Assembly: GCA_035546035.1 (NCBI GenBank)
Contig: DASZXC010000008.1
Coordinates: forward strand, 5,202 to 69,201
DNA length: 64,000 nt
Reading direction: 5' to 3'
From: Minisyncoccota bacterium
Lineage (GTDB): Bacteria; Patescibacteriota; Minisyncoccia; Phycocordibacterales; UBA6065
The notes beneath the pieces were generated by a model, which saw only the letters and a program-made list of their open reading frames with translations, searched no databases and was not told the DNA's origin. Shown here piece after piece: positions 776 through 50,476 of the stretch (position 1 is the first letter of the stretch; the number at the start of each line of letters is the position of its first letter). The translations under genes and the position numbers were made by a program.

Positions 776-1465
776 CTATTCGCGGGACTTGATCTCCTCG
801 CGCGTCCTCTCGATCCAGTGAGCCGCGGCGTTCTGGCCGCCCAGACCGAATGCGAGACCGAATGCGAGCGAGAGCGCTACGACGACTCCGGTGAAGAGCG
901 TCTGGATGAAGGTGACCGCGATGCCGAGCTGCACGAGCGCGGTAAGGAGGCCGAAGATCCAGATAGCCCATTTCGTGACGGCACCGAGGAAGTTGGCCGA
1001 CCTCACGCCGGTAGCGCGAGCCGAGCCGGAGACGACCTTCGAAAGCGCGTCAGCGATGACGACGGAGACGAGGAGGATGAGGACCGCCACTATCACCTGC
1101 GGGAGATAGAGCAATACGACGCTCTGGAGGAAGACGTTGACCTGATTGAGGCCGAGGACTTCGAACGAAGCGACGAGGAAGGCTACGATGATGAACCACT
1201 CGACGAGGCCGCCGATGAAGGCGCCCGAGTTGAGCGAGAAGCCCGCCCTCTTTACTACCGATCCAAAGCCGGCCTGCTCAAGGGCCGCGTCGAGCTTTAT
1301 CGAGCGGATGAGATGAGCGATGAGGCGACCGATGAGAGCGCCGACGATCCAGCCAATGACGAAAATGACGATGGCCGCGAGCAGATTAGGAAGAATGGAA
1401 GCGGTGCCTGCCCAGATGCCCTGGAAAGCGCCCGTAACCGAGTTTCCCCATGCTTGAAGTACCAT
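776..1465 (-). CDS. Integral membrane protein with conserved TM-helix repeats (MscS N-terminal-like family)
   Basis: 229 aa, very hydrophobic, with repeated amphipathic/TM segments. Weak family recognition only. Confidence 0.45.
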   Translation of the reverse strand: MVLQAWGNSVTGAFQGIWAGTASILPNLLAAIVIFVIGWIVGALIGRLIAHLIRSIKLDAALEQAGFGSVVKRAGFSLNSGAFIGGLVEWFIIVAFLVASFEVLGLNQVNVFLQSVVLLYLPQVIVAVLILLVSVVIADALSKVVSGSARATGVRSANFLGAVTKWAIWIFGLLTALVQLGIAVTFIQTLFTGVVVALSLAFGLAFGLGGQNAAAHWIERTREEIKSRE

Positions 1466-1571
1466 AAAACTTAAAAGATTAACGGAATAATGCCTAATAA
1501 TTTAACCTCAATAATTATAGCAATTAAAAATCCCGCAAGCGCAAGGCTTGGGGATAAAGAAACGGCCTTGT

Positions 1572-2195
1572 TTAGCGGGCTATTCCGATCTTGTCGAGCA
1601 AGACCATATGCGGAAAATCGATGACGTCGCGCACGAGCTTATCATTCATGGATACGCGGTATGCATAATCAGGGCCTGAAAGCACCGTATAGCGTATATC
1701 CTTGCCCATATCGGACTCTATCCCCTTTACGATCCGGTCCATAGAGGAATTCTTGACGTTATCGCCCACGACGAAGAGGTCGAGGCGGCTGTCCGTATTT
1801 CCCGTGAATATCCCCGACACGACGACGGCTTTGATGCGGCCGGCTTTCTCGAGCCTCTTGATGACGGCTCTGTTTTCGAGCGAATGGGTCTTGAGGAGGA
1901 AATCCGCAAGCGCTTCGCGATATTTAAAGCGATGATCGAGGGCGAATGCACGGACTTTGGCCCTTTTCTCTATTACCTGCCTGCCCTTCTTTATTTTTAT
2001 GATGCGGACGGCGCGGACTTTCTTCAAGAGGCCCATTTTCACGAATGCCGCCGCCTCTTTTTCTATGTCCCTCGGCTTCTCGCCCGTCTTCGCGACGATC
2101 TCGCTCGCATCGAATTCCCTGTCCGGATTAAAGAGGAAAAGCCTCATCATCCGTACGCGGAGCTCGCTGCCGAGAAGGTTTGAGAGTATGGTCAT
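1572..2195 (-). CDS. Hypothetical protein
   Basis: 207-aa ORF immediately downstream of rplL after a strong hairpin. It is basic and has no family I recognise. It is not uL1. Confidence 0.4.
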   Translation of the reverse strand: MTILSNLLGSELRVRMMRLFLFNPDREFDASEIVAKTGEKPRDIEKEAAAFVKMGLLKKVRAVRIIKIKKGRQVIEKRAKVRAFALDHRFKYREALADFLLKTHSLENRAVIKRLEKAGRIKAVVVSGIFTGNTDSRLDLFVVGDNVKNSSMDRIVKGIESDMGKDIRYTVLSGPDYAYRVSMNDKLVRDVIDFPHMVLLDKIGIAR

Positions 2196-2253
2196 GAGGT
2201 CGTGGAGTTAAGCGGTTAGTACGGACGAAGTATACCTCAACAGAGAACCCCCG

Positions 2254-2300
2254 CACAATATAAAATCACCCAGCACTCAGCGGGGTGATTTTATATTGTG
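2254..2300. terminator. Long perfect hairpin between rplL and the next gene; likely intrinsic terminator
   Basis: 18-bp stem, cacaatataaaatcaccc / gggtgattttatattgtg, with an 11-nt loop. It sits just 3' of the rplL stop. Confidence 0.5.
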
Positions 2301-2307
2301 CGCGGTC

Positions 2308-2688
2308 TTACTTAAGTTCGACCTTTCCGCCTGCCGCCTCGATATCCTTCTTGAGCTTCTCTGCGTCCTCTTTTTTGACGCCTTCCTTGAGAACCTTCGG
2401 AGCGCCGTCGACGAGATCCTTAGCCTCCTTGAGGCCGAGGCCGAGGGCCTCCTTAACGACCTTGATGACGTTGATCTTCGAAGCGCCGCCGTCCTTGAGC
2501 TCTACGGTGAACGTAGACTTCTCTTCGCCGCCCGCTGCTGCTGCGCCGGCTGCCGGAGCTGCCGCTACCGCCGCTGCGGATACGCCGAACTTCTCCTCGA
2601 GGTGCTTCACGAGCTCGTGAAGGTCGAGAACCGACATCGTCTCGAGACCGTCGACGATTGCCTTGAACTTTGCTGGGGTGTCTGCCAT
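2308..2688 (-). CDS. rplL: 50S ribosomal protein L7/L12
   Basis: 126 aa. Ala-rich flexible hinge followed by a C-terminal domain ([34 protein letters not shown]). Located directly after rplJ. Confidence 0.95.
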
Positions 2689-2710
2689 ATGATTTTTATA
2701 ATTTGAGTAA

Positions 2711-3229
2711 TTATGCCGCCGGGGTCTCTGCCGGAGCCGCCGTTCCCTTCTTCTTCGCTATCTCGCTGATCGCGATGACGCTGCGCTGGATAGGAGAATT
2801 GAAGAGATTGACGATCTGGGCATAGAGCGTCTCCCTGCTTGGGATCGAGCTGTAGGTCACGACCTCGTCCTTCGAGATGTACTTTCCTTCGAAAATACCG
2901 CCGAGGATGGAGAGCATGCCCTTGTTCTTCTTGAGGAATCCGCCGACTTCTCGGGACGAAGCGAGATTTTCGGTCGCGTATGCGACTGCGACTTCGCCGG
3001 CCATGTCAGGCTTTGCGCCTTCGATCTTTGCCGCGTCGAGAGCTCGGTTGAGGAGAGTCTTCTTGGCTACGATGTAACCGACGCCCTGGGCTTTGAAAGC
3101 CAAGCGCATCTTGTTAGCGTCGTTCACCTTGAGGCCTTTGAAGCCTACGAAGACCGCGCCCTTAGAATCCTTCAAGACAGCTTCGAGCTCTTTGACGAGC
3201 TCCTTCTTCTTGTCTTTGGTGATTGGCAT
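2711..3229 (-). CDS. rplJ: 50S ribosomal protein L10
   Basis: 172 aa, L10-like, upstream of rplL in the conserved order. Confidence 0.85.
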
Positions 3230-3442: not shown

Positions 3443-4741
3443 TCAAAATACGGATTTTACGGCCGCGATCAGATCCGTCGAACGGAAATAGGTCGAAAGC
3501 TCGCTCTTCCAATTCGGATCTTTTATGGAAACGTCGGGCACGACGCCGTTCGATTCGACAGGCTGATTGTCGTCGCGGAGCGTAAGGCTGTGAACGAGGA
3601 GCATCGAGTATCTCTCGCTCGGATCGATGACGGTCTCGATCGGAAACGTATTCTCGACGGTGCCCCATCCGCGCGTCGTTTCCCCGACCGAATGCGCGAG
3701 GCCGAGGCGCTTCATGGCGGCGGTCGTCACTTCAGCCGTCGACTGGCTCGCCCCATCGGTCAATATGGCGATCTCTTTGTATCGTCCGAGCTCGGCGAAT
3801 TTCGGCGCGGTCGTGCGCTGCGGCTTGTATTCGCCCTGATGGTACAGGTCATATGCGTACTGATTCTCTCCTATGAAAAGCCCGACGAATGCGGCCGCGA
3901 AGTCGAGCGATCCGCCCAGATTGCCGCGAAGGTCTATGATCATACTCGATAGGCCGGGCGTAGTCGTCGCTGACAGGATCGTCCTACCGAATTCGATGAA
4001 CGTCGTCGGCGATATGCTTGAAATGCTCACGTAAAGCGTCTTCCCTACCGCTTTGCTTTTGACCGTCGGCTCTATACCGCCCGCGTCATAGAGGTCTTTG
4101 GTATTCGGATTGGCGAGCACCTCCTTTGCATACGACACCTGTTCGAGCTCCTTTCGCGCTTCGGACGATGTCTTGGCTTCTGCGGCAAGGACCTTCTGCT
4201 TTTCCTCTGCTGCTTTGTTCACGTCTTCGGCGCTCGCGCCTGCGGCCAAGCCGAGGTCCTGATAGAGATTCTTCTCCGGATGGATATTGCTTACCCCCTG
4301 GCGCAGTTCGGTTTCCTGTACGGCGGAAAGGAGCTGCCCATGCCCCACGGGCTGCAGGTTATAGAGAGCGATGATGAGCGTATCCACGACCATCTGCTTT
4401 TTTGCGGCAGTGGACGTCGCGGCATCGATCGCGGTCTTGAGCATTTCTGCCGTCCCGACGCGGTTGCGAGTCGCGAGAAGCGGCACGACGGGGCTATTCA
4501 GGGCTTTCTGGAGCGAAAGCTGGAAATGGTCCGCCACCTGCTCTTCCGTCGTCGAAGCCCAGTAATTCTCGCGGATCTTGTCGTACGCTTCCATACCGAA
4601 ACGCACGTATGGGTCGGATTCTTCAGGAGTTTTATATGTCGCTTCAGCGGCGCGAGAATTCAGGCTGTGGAGCGTTGCGAACACGGCACCGCCGGCAAGT
4701 GCGAGAGAAAGGACAATAACGACGATACGTTTCAATGACAT
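3443..4741 (-). CDS. C-terminal processing (tail-specific) peptidase, S41 family, with N-terminal TM anchor and a J-domain-like insert
   Basis: S41 motifs are present (IIDLRGNLGG, TDGASQSTAEV). Confidence 0.75.
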   Translation of the reverse strand: MSLKRIVVIVLSLALAGGAVFATLHSLNSRAAEATYKTPEESDPYVRFGMEAYDKIRENYWASTTEEQVADHFQLSLQKALNSPVVPLLATRNRVGTAEMLKTAIDAATSTAAKKQMVVDTLIIALYNLQPVGHGQLLSAVQETELRQGVSNIHPEKNLYQDLGLAAGASAEDVNKAAEEKQKVLAAEAKTSSEARKELEQVSYAKEVLANPNTKDLYDAGGIEPTVKSKAVGKTLYVSISSISPTTFIEFGRTILSATTTPGLSSMIIDLRGNLGGSLDFAAAFVGLFIGENQYAYDLYHQGEYKPQRTTAPKFAELGRYKEIAILTDGASQSTAEVTTAAMKRLGLAHSVGETTRGWGTVENTFPIETVIDPSERYSMLLVHSLTLRDDNQPVESNGVVPDVSIKDPNWKSELSTYFRSTDLIAAVKSVF

Positions 4742-7317
4742 GTAGAGGGGGCATTAGTAATTCCTCGAAGGAGGCAGAAGCATATGGCCCGGAGCGAAGA
4801 AAAGAGTTTAGTCAGTATTGTGCACGCGAGCTTATAGGCTTCAGTATACCAGAAAGACGGCGCGGTCCTTGAAATTATGGCCGCGGAAATGGATGCATTC
4901 GCAGGCTTTTCATTATCTTCTTCCACGTCGTTGGTAAAAATCACGACCTTTTCGTGAGAATTGTCGTGAATAGTATCAGAAGTTGCGCTAGGCATAGCGA
5001 CAAGAGCTTTTCTGCTTGGTGGCATAGGCCTCAACGCCGCACCTGGCTCCGTATCCGTTGGGACTGGCGGAGCAGGCGCTTCCGCCGAGGTCCCTCTTTC
5101 TTCAATTCCCTGCACCGCACCATCAATAATTTTCAATTCCAGGCTTCTACTTTCGCTGGGCGTGATCTGATCAGTAAAACTTGAAAAAGACGAGGTTGCA
5201 TCGGAGACAGACTCGGTCTCGACGGTATATTCACCATATCCAGTGCCTTGAACTTCGATTTCATATGTTCCGTCTATTGGATCAGGGATAGATATGAAGT
5301 GGATTTCAGCGTCATCGCCTGAATAAAATACTCCCGGAGTATCGAGGGCATCTTCTCCTACCGGAGATAGGACGCTCATCTTCGCCGGAGAATGCATAGA
5401 TATAATGAGGATATCTCGAGGCATAAAAAACGGACCTGATGAAGAGATAGGCGTAGTCGTCGCGCCGAGCATATCCAAGACGAGCGATGCCGCCTTGTCA
5501 GGCAATTCAGAATGAGTCGATGCGATCGGCGTATCTGACCCCATATAAAGAAAGGCGCTCCGCATAGGCACCGTGCCATCGCCGAGATCATATTCAAAAC
5601 CGATCGGCGTTCCATGCATCCATTTTTCAGAGGTCGTCGCGCCCTTGTCCGCGGTGATGATCGAAAGAGTATTCGTACCGCTATTCCCGACGATATTGCC
5701 TACCCTCAATGATGGATTGCTTAAAGAGTTTTTATTTCGATCGAGATTCTCAAGGAAAAGATTCGCCGGATAGCCGTCAGGATAGAAGGCCGGCTTATTG
5801 TAATCAGTCGTATCGATATATCCGTATATGGGCAGAAGCTCACTTACGGAAGGAACTTCGCCGCTTCGCATATAGCTCAAAGCACCCTTATATCCATGTG
5901 CCCGGGCATAGAGATCGATGAGGATTTTAAGCACCCTGTCCCACAGAGAATTACTGCCCATCTCCCCTCCTTCAGCCATAAGATATGCCAAAGGAGCGCC
6001 GTGCTGGGGAGTGCCAAGGAATATAAGATCGGCCACGTCGTTTCTGTAATCGACGGATTCTATGTACGATCTGACCGCGAGACCTCCCATCGAGTGAGCG
6101 ACGACGTCTACTTTCGGGCAGCCGCAGATATGTTTTATCTCCTCGATCCTATCTTTTAGAGCATTGCCTGTATCCACGTTCGATCTTCTCCAATCATACG
6201 GAAAGGTAAAAAGGGTCGAGGTCCCGTAGCCGACCCTCTCAAGCACGGTCACGAGTCCGTCGTATGTATGGAAGACGGGATCTAAAATCCATTTAGTTCC
6301 TAATTGAAATGAGCCGAGGATACCAGGAACGATGACGACCGGCCTTTTAAGAGAGGACTCTCCGAGATTCTGCTCTAACGCAGCCGTTTTTTCGGTTGAA
6401 GTCGCTCCGACATCGGGAGAATATGTGAGCCATGGGAAAAAATCGGTTCGCGGAAAGATCCATGACCCTATGCCTGCAATATTATCGCTATATCTCGGCC
6501 CTGACTGGTCTCCCCACCAATTGTTAATTGCCGTAACAGTTCCAGCGTAGGCAGAGAGCACATCGACCCCATTCTCTATACCGATGAAACTCGAGTTCTG
6601 TATAGAGATATCGCCTCCTTCGATATGCACCCCTTCTTTTCCATTAAGAAAGAGCGAATCGGTGATTCTAAGGACTCCCGTAGATTCTACGGACAGAGCT
6701 GCCCATGCGGGCGCGTTGAATGTAGAATACGTTACCGACAGATTGCCCCTCACAAGGATCATCGGCAGATCAGTGCAGCCGGTATGACAGGAATGCTCGC
6801 CTCCATATTCGACGACCACGTGAGAAAAGATGCTTTGGGAACCTGCGTCTATGATGATCGGATCTTCCCAATCCCCGGCAATGGGATTTTGAGAATTCGA
6901 TGTAAAGACAATCGGCTCTTCGGCAGTTCCACGAGCCTCGATATTGCCGAGCGCATCGAGGAAAAAGCCGTCGGCCATACGGACCTCGACTCCGGGTTCG
7001 ATTGAGAGCGTTAAGTCCTCCGGGATATTGAGGCCTCGATCTAATATATAAGGACTTCCCTCCTTTATCCATGAAGTGGAAGAAGCGAGAGTCTCGTCAG
7101 CGATTACTGTCGAAGCATGAGCAAAATCGGCCCATGACCAAGCACATATAATAAGAAGGAGGGGACGGAGAAAATGACTACCGTACGGTCGCAGTCTGCG
7201 CTGATTCTCCTTTTTCCTGAAAATGTCCGGTGATATAGAGGATACCGAGAGACGCCAGGATGATAGCGCCGAGGCCGAGAGCGAATCTAAAGAAATCTTT
7301 GTCGAACATGGCTTCAT
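4732..7317 (-). CDS. Membrane-anchored extracellular LCAT-like alpha/beta-hydrolase (lipase/acyltransferase) fused to an N-terminal parallel beta-helix domain
   Basis: 861 aa. A TM/signal-anchor segment lies at about aa 55-75. Beta-helix-like repeats follow. The hydrolase domain has FPYDWRRS, nucleophile elbow VVAHSMGG and GDGTVP. A Ser/Thr-rich C-terminal region ends the protein. Confidence 0.65.
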   Translation of the reverse strand: MKPCSTKISLDSLSASALSSWRLSVSSISPDIFRKKENQRRLRPYGSHFLRPLLLIICAWSWADFAHASTVIADETLASSTSWIKEGSPYILDRGLNIPEDLTLSIEPGVEVRMADGFFLDALGNIEARGTAEEPIVFTSNSQNPIAGDWEDPIIIDAGSQSIFSHVVVEYGGEHSCHTGCTDLPMILVRGNLSVTYSTFNAPAWAALSVESTGVLRITDSLFLNGKEGVHIEGGDISIQNSSFIGIENGVDVLSAYAGTVTAINNWWGDQSGPRYSDNIAGIGSWIFPRTDFFPWLTYSPDVGATSTEKTAALEQNLGESSLKRPVVIVPGILGSFQLGTKWILDPVFHTYDGLVTVLERVGYGTSTLFTFPYDWRRSNVDTGNALKDRIEEIKHICGCPKVDVVAHSMGGLAVRSYIESVDYRNDVADLIFLGTPQHGAPLAYLMAEGGEMGSNSLWDRVLKILIDLYARAHGYKGALSYMRSGEVPSVSELLPIYGYIDTTDYNKPAFYPDGYPANLFLENLDRNKNSLSNPSLRVGNIVGNSGTNTLSIITADKGATTSEKWMHGTPIGFEYDLGDGTVPMRSAFLYMGSDTPIASTHSELPDKAASLVLDMLGATTTPISSSGPFFMPRDILIISMHSPAKMSVLSPVGEDALDTPGVFYSGDDAEIHFISIPDPIDGTYEIEVQGTGYGEYTVETESVSDATSSFSSFTDQITPSESRSLELKIIDGAVQGIEERGTSAEAPAPPVPTDTEPGAALRPMPPSRKALVAMPSATSDTIHDNSHEKVVIFTNDVEEDNEKPANASISAAIISRTAPSFWYTEAYKLACTILTKLFSSLRAICFCLLRGITNAPSTCH

Positions 7318-7344
7318 AGTAGCATTCTTGGTAAGGCTTATAAA

Positions 7345-8619
7345 TCATTTCTCGAGCGCTCTTATGAGACGGGATCTCACCTCTTCGAGAGTGAGATCTC
7401 CTGCATAAGGTTGAACCGACGTCTGGGCGATCACTTTTCCTGACGGATTTGCTATGCGGATGAAATCCTTGGGTGAGTCGATATTGACCATATCGAGAGG
7501 GATCTCAATGGATGAAAGCGGGAGAATAATCGTGTCTTGAGGGAATGCGAACCTCTTTTCAGAGTCTTCAAGGATAAATCCGCCGATATTCACTTCTCCT
7601 TTACCTTGATTCGACAGCAGCATCCGTCCAGGTAAAAGGGATAGCGCTATGGAGGGTTCGATTATCCTGACCTTCACCTTGGCGACAGCGTGGAATCCTC
7701 CATAATCAGTATTCGTAATCACGATATAATCGCCAGGATACTGATATGCATGCGAAACGATCTGTCCGATGAGAAGCGACCCGTCCCCCATCGTCCATAC
7801 GCTTCGCAGGCCAGAACCGACGGCAACGTCTTTCGACTTCTTTACCTTTGCTTCAAAGGAGAGCGGCGCGCCGACGAAGCCTATGCGCGGTCTTCCTGCG
7901 GTCACTTCGAATTGAGGAGCGTCATAGGAAGTGTTGGCGACCTCCTGACTGCTATGAGCCGAGGTATCCGAATCACCAGACGATGAAGAGCTTCCGCTGT
8001 CTGAGCCCATGGAATCGCCTGATTGATCATCGGTACTTCCGCCTTCTTCAGCGGGAGGAGCCGCGGATTCCGTTGCGATCGTCACCGATCCGACCGATAC
8101 GGCAGCGGCGATCCACTCTCCTGTTCCTGTTTTCTGCAAGGTATTTCCGTCACCGGCAGCGCCAATCATTGGATCATAAGAGACGCTATCCATAGATACG
8201 CCCGTATCATCATCAATGCTGATCGTCTCGCCTTCATTGCTCAAGGAAAAAGCGCTGTCGAAAAGAAGTCCTGAAAATCCCGGATTATCGATCTTGAACT
8301 TATCAGGATTGTCAGCGATGACTGCGAATCCGCCTGCCGGGAGAAGCGATTCGCCGATCACGGAAATCTTGTGATTTACGCCGCCCTCGACGAATCTCCA
8401 TGTTGAAAGGTCTACGGATTCCGATCCGGTATTCTGTACTTCGACCCATTCCCTGCCGGAATCGGTTCCCGGCGCGTCATACATGATTTCGGTTATCGCC
8501 GCGGCCGCTGAAACACCTAGAGGTATAGACGCAAAAAGCCAAACGAAAAGCATGAGTCTCCACGCCGCCGTGTCGGAAAATTTCGCCGGATATTTTTTAC
8601 GATAAGAAAGAGTCCGCAT
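7345..8619 (-). CDS. Secreted lamin-tail-domain (LTD) protein with PKD-like domain
   Basis: N-terminal signal peptide. LTD signature ITEIMYDAPGTDSGREWVEVQNTGSESVDLSTWRF. A Ser/Asp-rich linker follows. PKD-like motif TMGDGS...HAYQYPGDYIV. Confidence 0.65.
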   Translation of the reverse strand: MRTLSYRKKYPAKFSDTAAWRLMLFVWLFASIPLGVSAAAAITEIMYDAPGTDSGREWVEVQNTGSESVDLSTWRFVEGGVNHKISVIGESLLPAGGFAVIADNPDKFKIDNPGFSGLLFDSAFSLSNEGETISIDDDTGVSMDSVSYDPMIGAAGDGNTLQKTGTGEWIAAAVSVGSVTIATESAAPPAEEGGSTDDQSGDSMGSDSGSSSSSGDSDTSAHSSQEVANTSYDAPQFEVTAGRPRIGFVGAPLSFEAKVKKSKDVAVGSGLRSVWTMGDGSLLIGQIVSHAYQYPGDYIVITNTDYGGFHAVAKVKVRIIEPSIALSLLPGRMLLSNQGKGEVNIGGFILEDSEKRFAFPQDTIILPLSSIEIPLDMVNIDSPKDFIRIANPSGKVIAQTSVQPYAGDLTLEEVRSRLIRALEK

Positions 8620-8664
8620 GGAAACATGTTCGCATGCGGACTCTTAAGAGAGAGTGAGGGAAAT

Positions 8665-9630
8665 TTAATAACTTATACGGTCGACAATCAAACCGGAAAC
8701 ATCATACAAAGTAATAGTCTCTTTGTTCGCCGCCCACAATTCCCTCCCTTTGCCCAAGAATATGCGCCACTTTTTCAGGGAAAAGCCCGCGTCGTTCCTG
8801 TGGACCGCCACGCAGGCGGGATAGCTTAATCGCCCCGCCATGAATGCCCTGCACTGCGCCGTCTGCAGGTCATAATTGGTCTTGTCGTATTTGTACGGAT
8901 CCTCGCAACGGTTCAAAGACTGCATATAGTCATAGCATTCGCTCGTCACCGTGTTTATAGCCGGGTCGTTCGTCGGATACGGGCAGCGCTGCTCGAGGGC
9001 CGGCTCGAATGGATAGTTCTTCAGGTATCCTTCGCAGATATTCTCGCGGAACGAGGTAGAAATGGAATAAGGGAATTGGGAAAAAGCCTGACCCGTCGTA
9101 ACGACGGCCGTATCGCCCGCCGCCAAAAGGATATGCCCGACCTGGAACGATCCCGACGGATCGAGGAACTGCGTGCCCTGCCCGATCGTCGCCGAATCCG
9201 CCGTCGGATATATGTAGCTGTTCTGGCTTGTCTGGATCGGACGGGTTCCCTTGCCGTTGGTCAGCGTCCAACCCGTGATGTCAACCGACGTCTGGCCGTA
9301 GTTCTGGAGCGTCACGTATTCTTCGAACGGCTGTATAGAATAGCTCGCATTTCCCATGCCGAGCGACACTCTGCCCGCGTATGCCGATCGCTGCCCCGCG
9401 GGGATGTCGTCCGAATTGCCTCCGGAGCCGTAACTCGATCCGCCGCCCGTGCCCCCCGACCCGCCGTCGAGGAAGCCCAGAAGCGGGTTGTTGCCGCCGC
9501 TCGTCTGGCCGTATCCGCCCGGCGAATTGATGCTGCCTCCTCCGCCGATATTCGTCGGCACGTATTTCGCTGCCGATGCGAGGACGATGAAAATGACGCA
9601 GACCATGACGACGATGAGTGCGATCTTCAT
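8665..9630 (-). CDS. Secreted LTD-like protein with Gly-rich N-region and Cys-rich C-terminal domain (paralog of 61944..62816)
   Basis: The likely start is the internal Met (MKIALIVV...). The ORF track extends to 9690. LTD-like motif EEYVTLQNYGQTSVDITGWTL. The C-terminus CEGYLKNY..CPYP..YPACVAV..WRIFLGKGRELW..ITLYDVSG.IVDRISY is shared with the 290-aa protein at 61944. Confidence 0.6.
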   Translation of the reverse strand: MKIALIVVMVCVIFIVLASAAKYVPTNIGGGGSINSPGGYGQTSGGNNPLLGFLDGGSGGTGGGSSYGSGGNSDDIPAGQRSAYAGRVSLGMGNASYSIQPFEEYVTLQNYGQTSVDITGWTLTNGKGTRPIQTSQNSYIYPTADSATIGQGTQFLDPSGSFQVGHILLAAGDTAVVTTGQAFSQFPYSISTSFRENICEGYLKNYPFEPALEQRCPYPTNDPAINTVTSECYDYMQSLNRCEDPYKYDKTNYDLQTAQCRAFMAGRLSYPACVAVHRNDAGFSLKKWRIFLGKGRELWAANKETITLYDVSGLIVDRISY

Positions 9631-9769
9631 GATGAATCCTCTCTGCGCGGAAAGCCTGTTCTTCATGGATTCATTATATCCATACAACACAAAAGCCGCA
9701 TCTTGCGATGCGGCTTTTGCCGAAACTTACGTCAAACCTTTCGGTTGAAGTAGGCTCTGTACGCTACCG

Positions 9770-11656
9770 TTAAGGGAGCGATACAGCTGCCGTCCTCCAA
9801 GCCGTCTGGCCTGCCATGAAGTTCGAAGTGGTCGTACCAGTACCGTCAGTGTTCTTGCTCCACGCAACCGACTCGAGACCTACGGCGTAGGAACCGGTCG
9901 AAAGGAGAGAACCAGCGGTCGTCCTACCCTCGAAGACGAAGTCTACAGGGATAGTGACCGAGTTGTTCTGAGCGAGCTTGAATGCCTGAGGGCCTGCGAG
10001 ATCCGTAACACCCGACGATGGCGTAGACCATGCAACGCTGGTGTTGTTGCTCAAGCTGGTCTTAGCACCGTTCTGGTAGATACCGAAGGTGAAGGTGTTG
10101 TTAGGAGCCTGGTCTGCGAAGACGATGTCGCCGCCGACTGCGGTGATCGTGAGGTTGAACGTTGCATCTGCGGTCGAGGTCGAGAAGTTGTTCTGAGATG
10201 CAGTCGCCGACTTCGTGATCGTAGCCGAGTTGAGCGTGAAGACAGGGCCTACGCTTCGGACGTTGAAGGTGTTACCCGTAGCAGTACCCGATGGGTTGAC
10301 CGTCGAGCCCTGAGTGTTCTGAGCGACTGGGCCGTTAGCGGCGACAGTGGCGTTGAACGTAGAGTTCGAGGTGCCTGCGTTCTGAATATCAGCCTTGATC
10401 GTGAGGACCTTAGTGGTGTCCTGAGGTACCCAGTAGTTGATGTTCGAGAATACAGCCTTACCCGTCGAGGTGTTGACCGATGCCGAGCCGATCAAGGTCG
10501 AACCGTCATAGAGGTAAGCAGCGGTTGCAGTAGCAGCGCCGGTACCGTTGACGGTTGCCGTGAGGTCGGTGATCTCAACCTGGTCCTTCTGAGCGCGAAC
10601 GTCGAACGCGAGGAGAGGGAGCTTGTCGTACTGGTTGTTGTTTGCACCAGCAGAAGCTACGACATCCGAAGCGAGGAAGTTAGCAGCGTCAGTCGAGACG
10701 AGGAGCTGAGCGTTATCGGTGAGCGAACCCGAGACGGTGACCGTCTGCGAGAACTGCGAGATAGGACCGTACTGGTCGATGCCAGCGCCGTCCGTACCGC
10801 GAACCGCGTTCGAAGGAACCGTGATGGTTCGAGAACCGAGGTCGCCAGACTTGATCGACGAGTAGAGGTCAGCCTTGATGGTCAAGTACTTCGTAGAGTC
10901 CTTTGGAACATTGTAGCTGAAGCCGCCGAGGGTGAGGAGGTAGTCGGTACCAGACTTAACAACAGTGTTGCTGTTGAGGTCAGCCTGCGCGAGAACCTTA
11001 CCCGAGTCGTCTACTACATACATGGTCTTGAAGACCTTGGTGTAGATAGTCGTGTTCGTGCCAAGATCGAGCTGAACGCGCTGGACGTTGATGTCCGAGA
11101 GCTTCGACTGGAGCTTGAGAGAAACGACAGGGATCATCGTCTGTCCTTCGTAGACCGTGATGTTCGAGATCGAACCCTGGTCAACGGTGAGGATGCCTTC
11201 AACGCCAGAGTTTACTACTGGGTTAGAGGAACCGCCGGTGGTGCCGGTCGACGAGGTGCCGTTGAGCGATGCGCGGGTGAGAGGGCCTACGTAACCCGTT
11301 GCTGGGATGCCGTGTGCCGACTGGTACGCGACGACAGCCGCCTTCGTGATCGAACCGAAGTAGCCAGTTGCTGGCGATACTCCGAGAGCGTTCTGGAGAG
11401 CGGTGACGTCAGCGCCCGACGAACCGACCGTGAGGTCCTTCGTGAACGAAACCGACGACGACGAGTTCACTGCTGCCAACGCGGCCTGGGCCTTGTCAGG
11501 AGAGATGATACCCATCTGGATAAAGAGGTTGACGAGCTGCGTCAAGGTCATTGCCTGTGCCGAAGCTGCCGAAGCCCCTACTGCTGCGAAGACCGTGAGA
11601 GCCATCGTGAAACCGATGACTGCTGCAACAACCTTCGAAGTTGTTTTAATTTGCAT
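9770..11656 (-). CDS. Large secreted surface (S-layer-like) protein with N-terminal peptidoglycan-binding domain and Ser/Thr/Asn-rich repeats
   Basis: 628 aa with a signal peptide. PG_binding_1-like segment (DVTALQNALGV...GYFGSITKAAVVAYQSAHGI). Internal repeats are visible (TKYLTIKADLYSS / TKVLTIKADIQNAG). Very low K/E content. Confidence 0.6.
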   Translation of the reverse strand: MQIKTTSKVVAAVIGFTMALTVFAAVGASAASAQAMTLTQLVNLFIQMGIISPDKAQAALAAVNSSSSVSFTKDLTVGSSGADVTALQNALGVSPATGYFGSITKAAVVAYQSAHGIPATGYVGPLTRASLNGTSSTGTTGGSSNPVVNSGVEGILTVDQGSISNITVYEGQTMIPVVSLKLQSKLSDINVQRVQLDLGTNTTIYTKVFKTMYVVDDSGKVLAQADLNSNTVVKSGTDYLLTLGGFSYNVPKDSTKYLTIKADLYSSIKSGDLGSRTITVPSNAVRGTDGAGIDQYGPISQFSQTVTVSGSLTDNAQLLVSTDAANFLASDVVASAGANNNQYDKLPLLAFDVRAQKDQVEITDLTATVNGTGAATATAAYLYDGSTLIGSASVNTSTGKAVFSNINYWVPQDTTKVLTIKADIQNAGTSNSTFNATVAANGPVAQNTQGSTVNPSGTATGNTFNVRSVGPVFTLNSATITKSATASQNNFSTSTADATFNLTITAVGGDIVFADQAPNNTFTFGIYQNGAKTSLSNNTSVAWSTPSSGVTDLAGPQAFKLAQNNSVTIPVDFVFEGRTTAGSLLSTGSYAVGLESVAWSKNTDGTGTTTSNFMAGQTAWRTAAVSLP

Positions 11657-27838: not shown

Positions 27839-30800
27839 TTAGCGGCGCAAAGCTATGCGAAACGAGTATTCTTCCACCTTCATTTCTTCAGCCTGCGGGA
27901 GATGGGCATGCTCTATGCCCGTGACGAGCGTTATCCTCTTTATATCGTGAAGGAACGCATGCGCGAGCTCTTTGCCCTTCTCATCCGAATCAAGGGCAAG
28001 GGAGACCTTGTCGTCCACGGTCAGATTCTCTTTCTTGCGAAGCTCCTGGACCGAGCGTATGAGGTCTCGGATCACGCCCTCCTTGCGGAGCCCTTCAGTC
28101 ACGTCCGTATCGAGAGCCGTTTCAGCGGCTATCGTATGGTCCACGCCGACGGCTTTGACGTTCACTTCGTCTTTGATGAGGTCGATGAGGTCGGCGCCCA
28201 GCGAGGCGTTCTTGATGACCAGCTTGGCGAGAGGCTGGCGGACCTTGATGTTCGCCTTCGATCGTTCCTGGAGAGCGATCGTCACGATCTTCCGCGTCTC
28301 TTCCATCGCCTTCACGATTTTTCCATCGACGGAGGCTTCTGCCGGCCAATCTGCGAGGTGTACGCTTTCGGGATCGTTCGAACGCCTGATACGGCTGAAG
28401 AGATAGTCGGCGTAGAAAGGAATGAAGGGCGCGGCTATTTTCGCGAATTCGGCGAGGACGAATCGGGTCGTGGAAAGAGCCGCCTCTTTGTCGGCGCGGT
28501 TGTCAGATTTGAATCGGTCGCGCGATCGGCGCAGGTACCACGTCGAAAGGTCGTCTACGAACGACATCAACGGTCGCGCGGCCTTATCGAGCTGATAGAA
28601 ATCGAGATATTCGGTCATCTCGTTTCTTGTCTCATTGAGGCGCGCGCGTATCCAGAGGTCAAGAACGCTCTTTGAATCGGTTCTCGATGCCTTTTCGCTC
28701 TCTCCCCTGTTCGCGTACATCTCATAGAAAGCGAGGACGTTGTCGAGGCGCTGGATGAGCTTCTTGGACACTTCGTCTACGCCTTTTTCAGAGAAGCAGA
28801 GGTCCTGAGCGGCCACGACCGGAGAGGAAAGCAGATAATAGCGGAGAGAGTCGGCGCCATATTTGCCGATGACTTCGAGCGGGTCGGGATAGTTATTGAG
28901 GCGCTTGGACATCTTCTCGCCGTCTTCAGCCAAGATGATGCCGTTCACGACGACGTTCTTGTACGGGCTCTTTCCGAAGAGACCGACGCCGAGGACCATC
29001 ATGGAATAGAACCAGCCGCGAGTCTGGTCTAGGCCTTCGGCGATGAAATCGGCGGGATAGCCCTTTACGCCGCCCAAAAGACCTCCAAGCCTGCCGTTCG
29101 GATCGAAATGCTCCAAAGCCTTGCCGCGATAGTTCGATTCGCCGTACGGCATCGAGCCCGATTCGAACCAACAGTCGAATACTTCCGCTACGCGGACAAG
29201 CTTTTCGCCGTCCGGCGCGACGCATTCGACCGTATCTATATACGGCCTATGGAGGTCGAGATCGAATCCCCTGTTATGCGGCAAGCGAACAAAGTCGAAC
29301 GGATGGCATTCGCCCGTTTTTTGGAAATAGCGGCGCTCGTCGTGGAGGATCTTGTCCTCGGACGCGGTCTCGCCTATCCCATGAAGGATCGTGTTCAGAG
29401 GCGAGCCGTGGCTCACGATGAGGATCTTCTTGCCCGAATATTTTCTATCTATATCGAACATCGCTTCGAAGACGCGCTTCTTCAAATCCACCGGCGTTTC
29501 CATACCCGGGAAGAGCCCGTGCGTGCGGACGTGACGATCCGTCTCGGCCCACAGCTTGCCTTCCCTGTCGGGACCGACGTTGTATTCGCGGAGGCGGACG
29601 TCATAGACGATCTCGTTCTCCGGTATGCCGCAGGCATCGGCTATCATGCGCGCCGTCTCTTTGGTGCGCTCGAAATCGGACGCGACGATGACGTCGACGC
29701 CTTGCGCGGCGATCTTTTTGGCGGCTTCAGCGATCTGCTGTCTGCCCTTTTCGGTGAGGCCGTAATTTTTGGAGAGACTTATGTTCGAATTCGAAACGCC
29801 GAGAGCGTTCGCCTTCGATTCGCCGTGGCGGATGAGCGTATATGAATTGCCTGATCGCTGTATGAGCTTCGCCAGATCGGATATACCCCCGATCGGATAG
29901 AGCTTGCCCGAATCGACTCCCTTCCAGACAGGGATAGGGGCGCCCCAGAAGCGCGAGCGCGATATGGCCCAGTCGCGGGCGCCTTCGAGCCATTTGCCGA
30001 AGCGCCCGTCGCGGATATCGTCCGGCGTCCAAGAGACTTTTTTGTTCGCAGCGACGAGCTTGTCCTTGAACAACGTGACGCGGACGAACCACGATGACGC
30101 AGCGTAATTGAGGAGCGGCGTGTCGCAGCGCCAGCAGTGGGGGTACGAGTGGACGATCTTCTTCTTGTCGAAGAGAAGGCCGTGATGAGCGAGCCATTTG
30201 ACAATCTCGATATCGGTCTTCTGATGACCGTCCTTTTCATCAGACTTGGGCTTGACCGGCTGACCCGCGAAATCGGCGACTTCCGGCTTGAACGTTCCGT
30301 TCATAGCCACGTGCTGGATGAAAGGCAGGTCGTTCGCCTGGCCGAGCTTCATGTCATCGTCGCCGAACGCCGGCGCTATATGCACGATGCCGGTACCGTC
30401 TTCGGTCGTGACGAAATCGGCGGCATATACCTTGAATCCGTTCTTTTCATCCTTGAGAGAGCCGTCGAGATAGTATGAGAACGCCGGCTCGTATCCGTCG
30501 CCGACGAGCTCGCGGCCCTTTATGACGGAGACGAGCGCGTGCTCCTTGCCCGCGAATACGTCGGCGACGCGGTCGCGCGCGACGATATATGTCGCATTCT
30601 CGTACGATACGCGGGCGTAATCGATATCAGCGCCTACGGCCAAGGCGACGTTTCCGGGAAGCGTCCACGGCGTCGTGGTCCAGGCGATGAAGTATTCATT
30701 CGGAGGAGTCCCCTTCCTCTTCATTTTGACGAATACGGATATGTCGGTGATGTCCTTGTATCCCTGATTCACCTCGAAATTGGCGAGCGTCGTCTCGCAT

Positions 30801-31363
30801 CGCGGACATATCTGCATAGACTTGAAGCCTTCGTAGACGAGACCTTTGTCGAAGAGCGTCTTGAACGCCCACCAGACGGACTGGGTGTATGCCGCGTCCA
30901 TGGTGCGATAGTCGTCATCCATGTCTACCCAGCGGCCGATGCGGGGTATGATCTTTCTCCAGTCATGGGCGTATCGAAGGACGCTCTCTTCCGCCACGGC
31001 ATTGAATCTCTCCATGCCGTAATCGACGATGTCTTTTCGCGATCTGAGGCCGAGCTCCTTTTCGACCAAGTTCTCTACCGGCAGGCCGTGACAGTCCCAG
31101 CCCCAGCGCCGCGCGACATGATACCCGCGCATAGTCTTGTAGCGCGGAACGGCGTCTTTGATGAACGAAGCCAGCATGTGGCCGTAATGTGGAAGGCCGT
31201 TCGCGAACGGCGGGCCGTCATAAAAGACGAATTCCTTGCCTTTTTTGTCGAGAGATTTCTGGAAGATCTCCTTTTCGTTCCAAAAAGAAAGTATCTTTTC
31301 CTCTATTTCGACCAGTTTGGTCTTCGGCTTGGTTTCCGGTTGGGTTTTGGGAGCGTCTGCCAT
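27839..31363 (-). CDS. ileS: Isoleucyl-tRNA synthetase (type 2) with an inserted histidine-phosphatase-like domain
   Basis: 1174 aa. PHYGH, WAISRSRFWGAPIPVW and KMSKR motifs are present. Confidence 0.9.
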   Translation of the reverse strand: MADAPKTQPETKPKTKLVEIEEKILSFWNEKEIFQKSLDKKGKEFVFYDGPPFANGLPHYGHMLASFIKDAVPRYKTMRGYHVARRWGWDCHGLPVENLVEKELGLRSRKDIVDYGMERFNAVAEESVLRYAHDWRKIIPRIGRWVDMDDDYRTMDAAYTQSVWWAFKTLFDKGLVYEGFKSMQICPRCETTLANFEVNQGYKDITDISVFVKMKRKGTPPNEYFIAWTTTPWTLPGNVALAVGADIDYARVSYENATYIVARDRVADVFAGKEHALVSVIKGRELVGDGYEPAFSYYLDGSLKDEKNGFKVYAADFVTTEDGTGIVHIAPAFGDDDMKLGQANDLPFIQHVAMNGTFKPEVADFAGQPVKPKSDEKDGHQKTDIEIVKWLAHHGLLFDKKKIVHSYPHCWRCDTPLLNYAASSWFVRVTLFKDKLVAANKKVSWTPDDIRDGRFGKWLEGARDWAISRSRFWGAPIPVWKGVDSGKLYPIGGISDLAKLIQRSGNSYTLIRHGESKANALGVSNSNISLSKNYGLTEKGRQQIAEAAKKIAAQGVDVIVASDFERTKETARMIADACGIPENEIVYDVRLREYNVGPDREGKLWAETDRHVRTHGLFPGMETPVDLKKRVFEAMFDIDRKYSGKKILIVSHGSPLNTILHGIGETASEDKILHDERRYFQKTGECHPFDFVRLPHNRGFDLDLHRPYIDTVECVAPDGEKLVRVAEVFDCWFESGSMPYGESNYRGKALEHFDPNGRLGGLLGGVKGYPADFIAEGLDQTRGWFYSMMVLGVGLFGKSPYKNVVVNGIILAEDGEKMSKRLNNYPDPLEVIGKYGADSLRYYLLSSPVVAAQDLCFSEKGVDEVSKKLIQRLDNVLAFYEMYANRGESEKASRTDSKSVLDLWIRARLNETRNEMTEYLDFYQLDKAARPLMSFVDDLSTWYLRRSRDRFKSDNRADKEAALSTTRFVLAEFAKIAAPFIPFYADYLFSRIRRSNDPESVHLADWPAEASVDGKIVKAMEETRKIVTIALQERSKANIKVRQPLAKLVIKNASLGADLIDLIKDEVNVKAVGVDHTIAAETALDTDVTEGLRKEGVIRDLIRSVQELRKKENLTVDDKVSLALDSDEKGKELAHAFLHDIKRITLVTGIEHAHLPQAEEMKVEEYSFRIALRR

Positions 31364-47765: not shown

Positions 47766-49136
47766 CTAGAACTCCTGGAAATTAGGGATGAGAGTCTGAG
47801 AAGAGACCCAAAGGGTATGGCTATCTGTCTGCCCTCCGCCCGACGCGATGAATATAACCGAACAGGATGCGTTGACCCCTGCCGAGAATTTGAGCTGAAC
47901 GGAGAGGCCTATCCTTCCGGAAGGAGCTCTGTAGTTCCCCGCCGAGTCGAACGTCATGACAGCCTGGGGCGCCGCCTCAAAATCCGCTCCGTCGAATGAA
48001 TAAGAGACGTTCGAGCATGTGGTCGAATCGACCCTGACAACGACACTCTGATCAAAAGAGCCGAACGGGTTGACCTCTAGATCCTTCACTGGGCTCGTGC
48101 CGTCCAGATTCGAAGAGAATTTCGCCGAAACAGACGCGTCTCCATCGAGCGTGAACCCGCTCGAGACGTTACCGCCATCATTGGCGCCTCCGCCATCGGT
48201 ATTGTCACTACCATTCCCGCCAGGAGCATAGTCACACGGAAGAAGACCGCCGACATTAACCGCAGCCGCATCCTGGCAGACATTTACGGGAGGATACGAG
48301 CACGGAAGAAGACCGCCGTAATTTAAAGCATTCGAATCCTGACAAGCCGATAGAGGATAGGCGCAATTGACCGCCTCTCCATAATTAATCGCCGCGGGAT
48401 CGGAACAGACGGCAGGCGGTTGCACCACAAGAGCGCAATTCAAAGATTTCCCGCTTCCGGAAAGAGCGGCGTTACCGCCGTCGCCTATATTGATCCCGTA
48501 TGCGTCGATCGCGTGGGCCGAGCCGTCTTTGACGGACACCGGGGTCGGGAAAGAAAAGGCGTGATTGCCGACGTCTCCCCTATAGCCGTCGGCATGAGCC
48601 GCTCCCACGAATGCGCCGTCTGAATAAAAGTGGACATCGATGGCGGCATTAGGGTCGTCAGCATCCGATGCCCAGCCATTGAACGAATCGCACGATGCGG
48701 AATCGAGCCAGCCTTGAGGATTATTAGGATCGGTATGAGTGACCGGCGGCTGATCTACGCAGTTGCCCGCAGCGTCTTTGACCATACCAGGAGGCACGGA
48801 ATCCTGATTTCCTGAAACGTTAGGGCATATGTCGACGGGATTGCCGGAACCTCCGCCAGAGCCGACTTCTGGATTTGCGGGTTCGCCAGAGTACTCATAG
48901 TAAAAATCGGTGATGCCAGAATAGCTGCCGCAGTCGAGGGTTCCCGTTCCGATAGGTCTCCACTCATCGTCAAAACTCCTGCAACCTTCGGAAGTGTCGC
49001 TATCAAATCCGTCGAGATGGAAATCACTGCTTGAGTATTGAGCATTCACCCGCAGAATGGCCACATTGAAGAAAAAGAGGGTGAAGATGATCAGGGCCGC
49101 CCTCAACGAACGCCTCTCTTGAAATTTTCGTGTCAT
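47766..49136 (-). CDS. Secreted protein with triple cysteine-containing tandem repeat and Gly/Asp-rich regions
   Basis: 456 aa with a signal peptide. Three consecutive repeats of about 21 aa lie at aa 240-305, with pattern C-x-D-x(2-3)-A-[ILV]-N-[YV]-G-x(3)-[NP]-C-x-Y-[PA]-P. Confidence 0.6.
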   Translation of the reverse strand: MTRKFQERRSLRAALIIFTLFFFNVAILRVNAQYSSSDFHLDGFDSDTSEGCRSFDDEWRPIGTGTLDCGSYSGITDFYYEYSGEPANPEVGSGGGSGNPVDICPNVSGNQDSVPPGMVKDAAGNCVDQPPVTHTDPNNPQGWLDSASCDSFNGWASDADDPNAAIDVHFYSDGAFVGAAHADGYRGDVGNHAFSFPTPVSVKDGSAHAIDAYGINIGDGGNAALSGSGKSLNCALVVQPPAVCSDPAAINYGEAVNCAYPLSACQDSNALNYGGLLPCSYPPVNVCQDAAAVNVGGLLPCDYAPGGNGSDNTDGGGANDGGNVSSGFTLDGDASVSAKFSSNLDGTSPVKDLEVNPFGSFDQSVVVRVDSTTCSNVSYSFDGADFEAAPQAVMTFDSAGNYRAPSGRIGLSVQLKFSAGVNASCSVIFIASGGGQTDSHTLWVSSQTLIPNFQEF

Positions 49137-50476
49137 ATCTTTTTAATATGCGCTTTAGTCCGAGATATCCGTACCGAGAGCGCATAGACTAGGGTCGCCG
49201 AGACGATAACGATAAAGGACAAGGCCGCCGTGCTCGGCACGGAACCGGCTTCGCCGTGCCGAGAGAGCGAGTAAAGCACGCGCGCGTTTTCGATGGTGCT
49301 CGATGCTTTCAGGATATCACCCTTTAATATAAGGTCTCCGCTATAGTCCGCGTCAGGCGTCAAAAAACCGGAAAAGCCGCTCACGGAGATGCCGCTGAGC
49401 GTGCCAATATCGGCAAAGACGCTGCCGTCAGGCTTTAAAAGCGAGAGATGCACCAAATAATCGCGATCCTCCGCGATGGCATGGTCGGTGAAAGCGCATC
49501 CCGATACCTTTACGACTTTGCCTTTTTCGAGAGGGAAAGAACCGAGGCTCAAAGAGATAAACGTCGCATACGGCGCATCTCTGTTAAAGATCCGGTATGA
49601 GTAGTACGAATTCTTGCCGCCGTCCTTCATTTCGACAAGAACATGGTAGAGAGGATCCGCCAAGGCCGGGATCGCGAACGAGGCTGCGGCTTTTCCGGAT
49701 ACGAATCGGATGTCTTGATCGACAGAGCTTACAAGCTGAGAATCGTCGATGACGTTCGATCGATAGACCTTCCAAGAAATCGAGGCGCCGTGCGTCGTCA
49801 TATCGGTCGATATCAGGCTAAGCGTCGTCGTCGCTGAACGGGATGCGGAAAGAGAAAGCATGCGATTGGGATCAAGAGGCTTTTCATTCACCCGTATCGA
49901 TGAAGGATCGATGAAGGAAGCTCGGGAAGCCGAAGAGGTAACGGTAAAGAGCGTGCTGGCGCCCGTTTCCCTATCGCTCTGCTCCGCTCCGGCAAGCTCC
50001 AACTCGCCGCTTGATATGAGGAAAGTGCTCGCCTTATACGTCCCGCTGACGAGCTCCGCAGGGACTTTCCACGCGAAAGAGAAAGGGATCGATGCTCCGC
50101 CAAGAACCTGGATATTCGTAAAGGGCACCGCCCTATACACGACATCCGGGGTCTTGGCGTAGAAAGATCCCTGGCTCTGGGCTATCTTTTCTATTCGAAT
50201 GACAAGAGAACCGTCCGTTACAGGGGCAAGCGCCGAATTGCGGATGCTTCCTGAGAATATCGCCGAATCTCCTGAAACAAGGGAATGGATAGGCAGGAGC
50301 GTCACTGTTACGGGACTTTTTGAGATGATACAAGACCTTGAGATGAAAATATCATTATTTGCCGGCAATGTGGCGCCCGAAACTGGATACGCAACAATCC
50401 CGACCGCTAAGCCGACAGCAGAGGCGCATGCAAGAAGTATCGAGAGAAAAGAGGCTGATCTTTGTGATATCATCAT
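49133..50476 (-). CDS. Surface protein with N-terminal signal peptide and C-terminal TM anchor plus basic tail (hypothetical)
   Basis: 447 aa. It overlaps the downstream gene by 4 nt (operon). The C-terminus is FIVIVSATLVYALSVRISRTKAHIKKI. Confidence 0.55.
   Translation of the reverse strand: MMISQRSASFLSILLACASAVGLAVGIVAYPVSGATLPANNDIFISRSCIISKSPVTVTLLPIHSLVSGDSAIFSGSIRNSALAPVTDGSLVIRIEKIAQSQGSFYAKTPDVVYRAVPFTNIQVLGGASIPFSFAWKVPAELVSGTYKASTFLISSGELELAGAEQSDRETGASTLFTVTSSASRASFIDPSSIRVNEKPLDPNRMLSLSASRSATTTLSLISTDMTTHGASISWKVYRSNVIDDSQLVSSVDQDIRFVSGKAAASFAIPALADPLYHVLVEMKDGGKNSYYSYRIFNRDAPYATFISLSLGSFPLEKGKVVKVSGCAFTDHAIAEDRDYLVHLSLLKPDGSVFADIGTLSGISVSGFSGFLTPDADYSGDLILKGDILKASSTIENARVLYSLSRHGEAGSVPSTAALSFIVIVSATLVYALSVRISRTKAHIKKI

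Follow-up and report, generated by a model that had tools for sequence, protein, structure and literature searches.

Does a J-domain lodged inside a predicted extracytoplasmic S41-fold protein still serve Hsp70, and if it does not, what might it do there? The question arises from a 64,000-nucleotide stretch of a Minisyncoccota bacterium genome (assembly GCA_035546035.1, contig DASZXC010000008.1, positions 5,202 to 69,201 of the forward strand; hereafter the window). It encodes a protein, here called the host, that combines an N-terminal signal anchor, a helical N-domain and a C-terminal S41 peptidase core with an internal segment reminiscent of DnaJ. An initial annotation, made from the sequence, had drawn attention to this segment and to its lack of the HPD tripeptide. 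The segment, referred to below as the cassette, is almost certainly a genuine but degenerate J-domain, as judged by homology and by fold.

Homology and fold of the cassette

Taken in isolation, the segment aligned with PF00226 (DnaJ) from end to end (positions 1–63 of 63 against residues 158–219; E = 8.3e-5, 23.1 bits), and weak matches to NCBIfam DnaJ equivalog models covered residues 156–233. A phmmer search of the whole protein against PDB sequences recovered about 25 J-domains, among them 1hdj (E = 1.7e-4). When a profile was built from the segments of 50 family members, 58 of its 60 PDB matches were J-domains, including DNAJA2 (E = 3.7e-11) and DNAJB1 (E = 3.6e-10). All 50 member segments matched PF00226 at E ≤ 0.01, the best of them at 1e-10. 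Many relatives also pass the gathering cut-off of that model: by manual count, precomputed PF00226 matches exist for about 65 of the 120 homologues closest to the query.

The segment was modelled with AlphaFold2 (AF2) at a predicted local distance difference test (pLDDT) value of 83, with four helices at model positions 10–13, 22–40, 44–61 and 63–72. This is the four-helix J fold, including the hairpin of helices II and III. A Foldseek search of the model against the PDB returned J-domains for all of the top 50 matches (template modelling (TM) scores of 0.58–0.74, probability ≥ 0.98). Within the cassette, the conserved residues are mostly those of the canonical J-fold core, namely LY..LG, AY..K..L, YA..VL and K..YD. 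The full-length family profile also detected, through the J region alone, a canonical protein with six HPD-bearing J-domains (P0229). Its multi-stretch match was strong; the protein is unrelated and was rejected as a family member, and its detection supports the homology.

Similarity at both profile and structure level thus bears out the J-domain likeness proposed in the initial annotation for residues 158–222, and the segment is not a generic coiled coil. The interval given there, 4075–4270, yields on the minus strand exactly the 65 residues quoted, with the codons running from 4076 to 4270, so that only the start was off, by one base. The cassette thus descends from DnaJ-type J-domains and has kept their four-helix fold.

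Loss of the Hsp70-activating features

Neither HPD nor HPE was found in the query or in any of about 265 relatives, comprising the 120 closest homologues, 75 ORFs (open reading frames) from species-representative genomes and 69 representatives of clusters formed at 50% identity. This agrees with the absence of HPD noted earlier for the query, in which L185 is followed by AAEAKTS. Hidden Markov model (HMM) alignments set the family residues a-k-s opposite H-P-D, and at this site the query carries a two-residue insertion that is private with respect to its 120 closest homologues. The HPD motif is necessary for the stimulation of Hsp70 ATPase activity (Tsai and Douglas, 1996, as cited in a passage of PMC10410713).

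Averaged over 121 members, the net charge of helix II is −0.9 (range −3 to +1), compared with +2 to +4 in four canonical J-domains. Family members differ in the length of the loop joining helices II and III, from 1 to 55 residues, so that the tip contacting Hsp70 in real J-domains is unconstrained here. The cassette has therefore lost every feature that serves Hsp70 activation: the HPD motif, the basic face of helix II and the constrained II–III loop.

The predicted location of the protein points in the same direction. A single hydrophobic window was found in the query, at the N terminus (KD19 2.56); 103 of 121 family members have an N-terminal window above 1.6, and in no member does another follow. 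The anchor is preceded by 2.6 Lys/Arg versus 0.17 Asp/Glu on average in the family. Because the anchor is preceded by positive charges (positive-inside rule) and followed by no further transmembrane segment, the body of the protein, cassette included, is predicted to face outwards from the cytoplasm while remaining membrane-anchored. Such a topology agrees with the extracytoplasmic location of C-terminal processing peptidases (CTPs), which are also ATP-independent (PMC11021448). The term periplasmic, used for this protein at first, is right in placing it outside the cytoplasm; since the organism is a Patescibacterium, extracytoplasmic and membrane-anchored describes it better. The cassette would sit where there is neither Hsp70 nor ATP.

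Given the missing HPD, the acidic to neutral helix II, the unconstrained loop and the predicted extracytoplasmic site, the cassette is very probably not an Hsp70 co-chaperone. The earlier statement that it cannot stimulate Hsp70 in the classical way, made on account of the tripeptide, thereby gains further backing from helix charge, loop variation and predicted location.

Cassette boundaries, losses and the PDZ slot

Four full-length representatives (P0136, P0147, P0177 and P0191) are cleanly devoid of the cassette, with '..V.NINP' joined straight to 'xEPT..', and in P0175 it is partly deleted. In a neighbour-joining tree of N-domain and core columns (midpoint-rooted and without bootstrap support), the J-less sequences occupy four distinct positions, every one of them nested within J-bearing sequences. 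This scatter suggests that the cassette is probably ancestral to the family, was lost independently at least four times and is dispensable for the remainder of the protein fold. It is kept by about 95% of full-length representatives, while the adjacent regions have diverged to about 20–30% identity. The initial annotation had asked whether S41 orthologues in related genomes carry the same insert; it is present in close homologues, in species-representative loci and in cluster representatives.

The DSSP string of the AF2 model contains single-residue beta bridges at positions 153 and 223, so that the two ends of the cassette meet, as in a domain inserted into a loop. The cassette is a self-contained unit (residues 156–222), set into a loop at the surface of an S41-fold protein that carries a signal anchor. 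In the model, the former HPD loop appears to lie at the distal end, pointing away and free to vary.

The initial annotation had located the segment between the membrane anchor and the protease domain. It does precede the S41 core, but does not directly follow the anchor, as a helical N-domain of about 115 residues (residues 36–152) intervenes. No sequence homologue of residues 36–157 was found by a profile search against the PDB, which returned only noise (best E = 0.07, designed proteins). In a joint alignment with canonical CTPs, the first helix alone aligns with the CtpB_N-like region, and its motif of Y53, I56 and Y60 is common to the family and two canonical CTPs. Family-specific helices and a strand (residues ~91–152) lead up to the cassette.

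The two canonical CTPs, from plasmid records of Listeria and Priestia, consist of a CtpB_N-like region, a PDZ domain (~111–210) and a Peptidase_S41 domain from residue 212 or 229. The end of their PDZ domain ('..IPIE-TVY') aligns with '..GGIEPTVK' of the family. This shared 'IE(P)T' junction indicates that the cassette fills the C-terminal part of the canonical PDZ slot.

A non-canonical S41 active site

A Pfam scan of the query protein matched Peptidase_S41 at residues 235–405 (E = 3.3e-21) and gave no PDZ match, even at E ≤ 10. The NCBIfam models for C-terminal processing peptidases matched partially and over the core only, with positions 141–324 of 335 in TIGR00225 covering residues 223–416. 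Both the Ser-x-x-E nucleophile motif and the DxRxNxGG motif of the S41 core are present in the host.

In CtpB the catalytic triad is formed by S309, K334 and Q338, and S41A peptidases are defined by their Ser-Lys dyad together with a PDZ domain (PMC11021448). Alignment with CtpB (4c2c) paired 'GSASASEIL' with 'gasqstaev' of the query, and the canonical 'GSASASE' was paired with 'ASQSTAE'. Tryptophan 359, in the family motif 'RGWGTVE', falls opposite the Lys of 'FGKGTVQ' in CtpB and opposite that of the two canonical CTPs. W359, G358, G360 and E363 are invariant in all 121 sequences, and the position 25 residues after the nucleophile is Trp in 67 of the 69 cluster representatives and Val in the other two. 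S334, Q333 and E337 are likewise invariant in 121 of 121, the Ser being retained in all cluster representatives. The DxRxNxGG oxyanion motif and many polar residues around it and around the Ser motif are invariant as well.

Judged by its sequence, the host is not a canonical S41A protease: the PDZ domain is absent, the Lys has become Trp and the Gln has become Glu. Its first description as an S41 C-terminal processing peptidase is accurate for the fold and the Ser motif, but not for the missing PDZ domain or for the catalytic Lys, which is an invariant Trp. Loss of the Lys with retention of the Ser motif points to either a pseudo-protease or a non-Lys mechanism. That the Ser is so strictly kept speaks for a chemistry, or at the least a pocket, that has been preserved, and residual catalysis of a non-Lys kind may persist.

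Candidate bases for Ser334 are Arg/His134 and Glu363. Residue 134 belongs to an LxPxG[R/H] motif that may be the counterpart of the His98 region of NSR, a PDZ-less S41 enzyme. Within this motif P131 is invariant; about 94% of members have Arg at position 134, and His there is restricted to the subclade of the query (about 11 sequences). A Ser-His site of the tricorn, CPAF or NSR type was considered and rejected, as a column survey found no invariant His in the family and H134 is specific to the query clade. Columns 130, 132, 248, 256 and 343 co-vary with the choice of His or Arg at position 134; as this concerns a single clade and is confounded by phylogeny, it was not used as evidence of contacts.

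A further reading is that the protein represents a new catalytic type of S41, in which Ser334 works with Arg/His134 or Glu363 as the base, Trp359 lines the site and the J-domain gates access or docking in place of the PDZ domain. We hold this composite picture to be rather doubtful as a whole.

Role of the cassette

We regard it as reasonably probable that the cassette is a degenerate J-domain that acts independently of Hsp70 in the slot of the PDZ domain, where it has a lid or docking role. It would act beside the S41 active-site cleft and take over part of the PDZ function. A structural lid or docking module is the likeliest specific role, because the cassette ends meet, the loop is free to vary and the cassette stops at the junction that ends the canonical PDZ domain; the assignment to this particular role is a tentative one. 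The protein-interaction module suggested in the initial annotation is likewise a conjecture.

Several observations weigh against this explanation. The query on its own misses the PF00226 gathering cut-off of 27.8 bits, with 17.4 bits when the whole protein is scored and 23.1 bits when the segment is taken by itself. Column statistics for the 120 closest homologues revealed no obvious conserved new surface on the cassette that would hint at a specific partner, and no neighbour is conserved throughout the family, the commonest neighbour family occurring in 17 of 80 loci, with no operon partner. The topology prediction draws only on hydrophobicity and charge. Finally, the fold can do without the cassette, as independent clean losses in four or more lineages demonstrate, and its contribution could be small.

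This last point leads to the idea that the cassette is an evolutionary relic, a stable and harmless helical spacer devoid of specific function. Such a relic would fit with the four or more independent clean losses and the single partial deletion, and with a II–III loop that tolerates both deletions and insertions of 55 residues. Conservation is also lower in the cassette (mean top-residue frequency 0.61–0.66) than in the S41 core (~0.8), and is centred on fold-core residues. However, the cassette persists in about 95% of full-length representatives across highly diverged lineages, with all four helices and the J-fold signature residues intact. A functionless insert of 67 residues would be expected to decay or vanish more often in the streamlined genomes of Patescibacteria. 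We therefore consider a relic unlikely, if worth keeping in mind.

The cassette might instead join two or more S41 subunits, a task that N- and C-terminal dimerisation motifs perform in CtpB and CtpA. Canonical CTPs act as dimers or hexamers held together by helical dimerisation motifs (PMC11021448), and in the model the cassette is a solvent-exposed helical bundle. Oligomerisation nevertheless seems improbable, as the J-less variants leave the rest of the protein unchanged and no hydrophobic patch conserved on the surface is evident from the column statistics.

Recruitment of DnaK by a J-domain that still works through a mechanism other than HPD, for instance on the cytoplasmic side before or without export, would be in keeping with the clear J-domain homology and with the NCBI and JGI records that call some relatives 'DnaJ domain-containing protein' or 'CbpA'. 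The absence of HPD or HPE throughout the family examined, the requirement for this motif cited above, the lost basic charge of helix II, the unconstrained loop length and the predicted N-in/C-out topology make it very improbable. Least credible is a chance or compositional resemblance of a helical linker or coiled coil rich in Ala, Glu and Lys: the segment is indeed rich in these residues and the query alone falls short of the Pfam cut-off, but the profile matches, the agreement of all 50 members with PF00226 and the structure comparison leave this reading next to no probability.

Family distribution and gene context

With the full-length profile, 129 clusters at 50% identity were recovered at E ≤ 1e-30 and 396 at E ≤ 1e-10, beyond which a wide gap separates these from S41 and J-domain proteins of the ordinary kind. 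When one genome per species was scanned, 96 relatives were recovered, nearly all labelled Paceibacterota, Parcubacteria or Patescibacteria, with Kaiser-, Taylor-, Nomura-, Zambryski- and Adlerbacteria among their lineages. The family, of at least 129 clusters, is essentially confined to Paceibacterota. At least two genomes contain two paralogous J-bearing S41-like copies each (related loci L067/L071 and L052/L057). One member of 760 residues (P0198) carries a multi-pass membrane region of about 370 residues as an N-terminal fusion. In the source annotations, relatives appear as 'S41 family peptidase', 'DnaJ domain-containing protein', 'CbpA' or 'CtpA/Prc', which shows that annotation pipelines already see both domains. 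The features of the gene in the window are collected in Table 1.

Table 1. Features of the S41/J gene, with positions in the window and residues of the encoded protein.
Feature	Residues	Position	Strand	Basis or remark
Whole gene, 432-residue membrane-anchored S41-fold protein with J-like cassette		3443..4741	−	Intact ORF
N-terminal signal anchor, RIVVIVLSLALAGGAVFATLHS, predicted N-in/C-out	5–26	4664..4729	−	Hydrophobicity; AF2 helix 3–26
Helical N-domain	36–152	4286..4636	−	First helix (Y53-x-x-I56-x-x-x-Y60) aligns with CtpB_N-like region of canonical CTPs
'LxPxG[R/H]' motif, LQPVGH in the query	129–134	4340..4357	−	Conserved; candidate partner of Ser334
J-like cassette (helix I 159–162, II 171–189, III 193–209, IV 212–221)	156–222	4076..4276	−	Profiles, AF2, J-less variants
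Helix II–III loop, AAEAKTS, HPD site of canonical J-domains	186–192	4166..4186	−	HMM alignments
S41 core, beginning at the conserved 'IEPT' junction	223–410	3512..4075	−	Pfam, NCBIfam, PDB alignments, canonical CTP alignment
Nucleophile motif SQSTAE (family consensus TQSTAE), Ser334 equivalent to CtpB Ser309	332–337	3731..3748	−	CtpB alignment
RGWGTVEN motif, W359 at catalytic Lys (Ser+25), E363 at triad Gln (Ser+29)	357–364	3650..3673	−	CtpB alignment
C-terminal helical pair	411–432	3446..3511	−	AF2 helices 411–418 and 422–431; W411 in 117 of 121 sequences

The start of the S41/J gene overlaps by 10 nucleotides the stop of a gene for an 861-residue LCAT/PGAP1-like alpha/beta hydrolase (HSMGG). 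This hydrolase opens an upstream run of predicted surface or secreted proteins (4732–11656, minus strand), continuing with an LTD+PKD protein, an LTD protein and a PG_binding_1 protein. Directly downstream lie rplJ and rplL (776–3229, minus strand), followed by a 207-residue ORF without a Pfam match and an MscS-like membrane protein, not by rpoB/rpoC. The combination of the LCAT-like gene with rplJ and rplL occurs only in the 9–10 closest of 80 loci, to which the arrangement of the upstream run is likewise limited, and the neighbourhood was for this reason set aside as a functional clue. A comparison of non-synonymous and synonymous substitution rates (dN/dS) by domain was likewise abandoned, as synonymous sites are saturated at 52–69% amino-acid identity.

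Elsewhere in the window, a 1174-residue IleRS-like class I aminoacyl-tRNA synthetase (27839–31363, minus strand) contains a His_Phos_1 match at residues 509–664 (E = 1e-27), which sits between two tRNA-synt_1 stretches and constitutes an unusual internal insertion. Two adjacent ORFs of 456 and 447 residues (47766–50476, minus strand) have no Pfam match at E ≤ 1e-5.

Significance

The presence of a J-domain is commonly equated, or nearly so, with Hsp70 recruitment. Sequences without HPD and those from unclassified organisms were dropped from a large J-domain survey (PMC10410713), and filters of this kind place the S41/J family outside such surveys. In this family nature would provide a clear-cut example of a J fold that was exapted to form an internal structural cassette within a predicted extracytoplasmic protein, with the J-less variants as built-in natural controls. 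On the S41 side, the widespread Patescibacterial label 'S41 peptidase' hides a protein that lacks both hallmarks of S41A, the Lys and the PDZ domain, which matters wherever cell-envelope proteolysis is inferred in reduced genomes. The family also provides a test case for the rewiring of S41 active sites, beside the precedents of NSR, CPAF and tricorn. If the protein were indeed a new catalytic S41 type gated by a J-domain, it would be the first bacterial J fold to act outside the cytoplasm independently of Hsp70, on the surface of episymbiotic Patescibacteria. The practical impact is modest unless an activity or a partner is found.

Literature searches found no paper on a DnaJ and S41 architecture or on CTPs of Parcubacteria. 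The combination is new, and both of its themes, HPD-less J-like domains and non-canonical S41 homologues, are known.

Comparison with known systems

Compared with the J-domains of DnaJ/Hsp40 proteins (PF00226), the cassette is internal rather than N-terminal, lacks HPD, has an acidic to neutral helix II and a variable loop, and is predicted to lie outside the cytoplasm, with no plausible Hsp70 partner. It recalls a group of J-like proteins, DNAJB13, mL77, NdhU, Pam16 and ARC6, in which the J fold has been kept as a structural or regulatory part of another machine; mL77, NdhU, Pam16 and ARC6 are not known to carry the HPD motif. Three of the group were among the matches to the cassette: DNAJB13 of axonemal radial spokes (8j07, 9fqr), mL77 of the trypanosome mitoribosome (6hiv, 6yxx) and NdhU of the chloroplast NDH complex (9grx). 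DNAJB13, too, has no classical HPD motif (PMC10410713). Unlike the cassette, which is an insert inside an enzyme fold, these proteins are separate subunits in compartments that contain Hsp70 (cytosol, matrix or stroma), and no specific sequence link was found between them and the cassette beyond the general J-domain signal.

Among S41 proteins, the family differs from the S41A CTPs (CtpA, CtpB, Prc/Tsp and the D1 protease) in having a J-like cassette and extra helices in the PDZ slot, and in the exchanges of Lys for Trp and Gln for Glu. Comparison with S41 proteins gave the following figures, which carry no label in the source: 20.6 for 6vbb and for the D1 protease (1fc6), 19.7 for CtpB, 19.6 for CtpA, 19.5 for Prc with the PDZ domain deleted, 17.9 for NSR, 16–17 for IRBP, 16.4 for CPAF and 12.3 for Tricorn. 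The non-catalytic S41 modules of IRBP (retinol-binding protein 3), which gave the best PDB sequence match, have Gly at the position of S334, in contrast to the invariant Ser of the family.

The closest parallel may be NSR (4y68), which has in common with the family an N-terminal helical bundle, a PDZ-free core and the motif T-x-S-[ST]-A-E. In NSR the base is supplied by the N-terminal segment, with His98 following GGG (PMC4698656). This His98 is strictly conserved, whereas the analogous position of the family is Arg in most members and His in the query subclade only; NSR also has no J-like insert, and its sequence similarity is marginal (E = 0.035). By the residue numbering of PMC4698656, and assuming no insertions or deletions, NSR would have a Tyr at Ser+25, the position of the Lys. 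The host most resembles PDZ-less S41 enzymes such as NSR.

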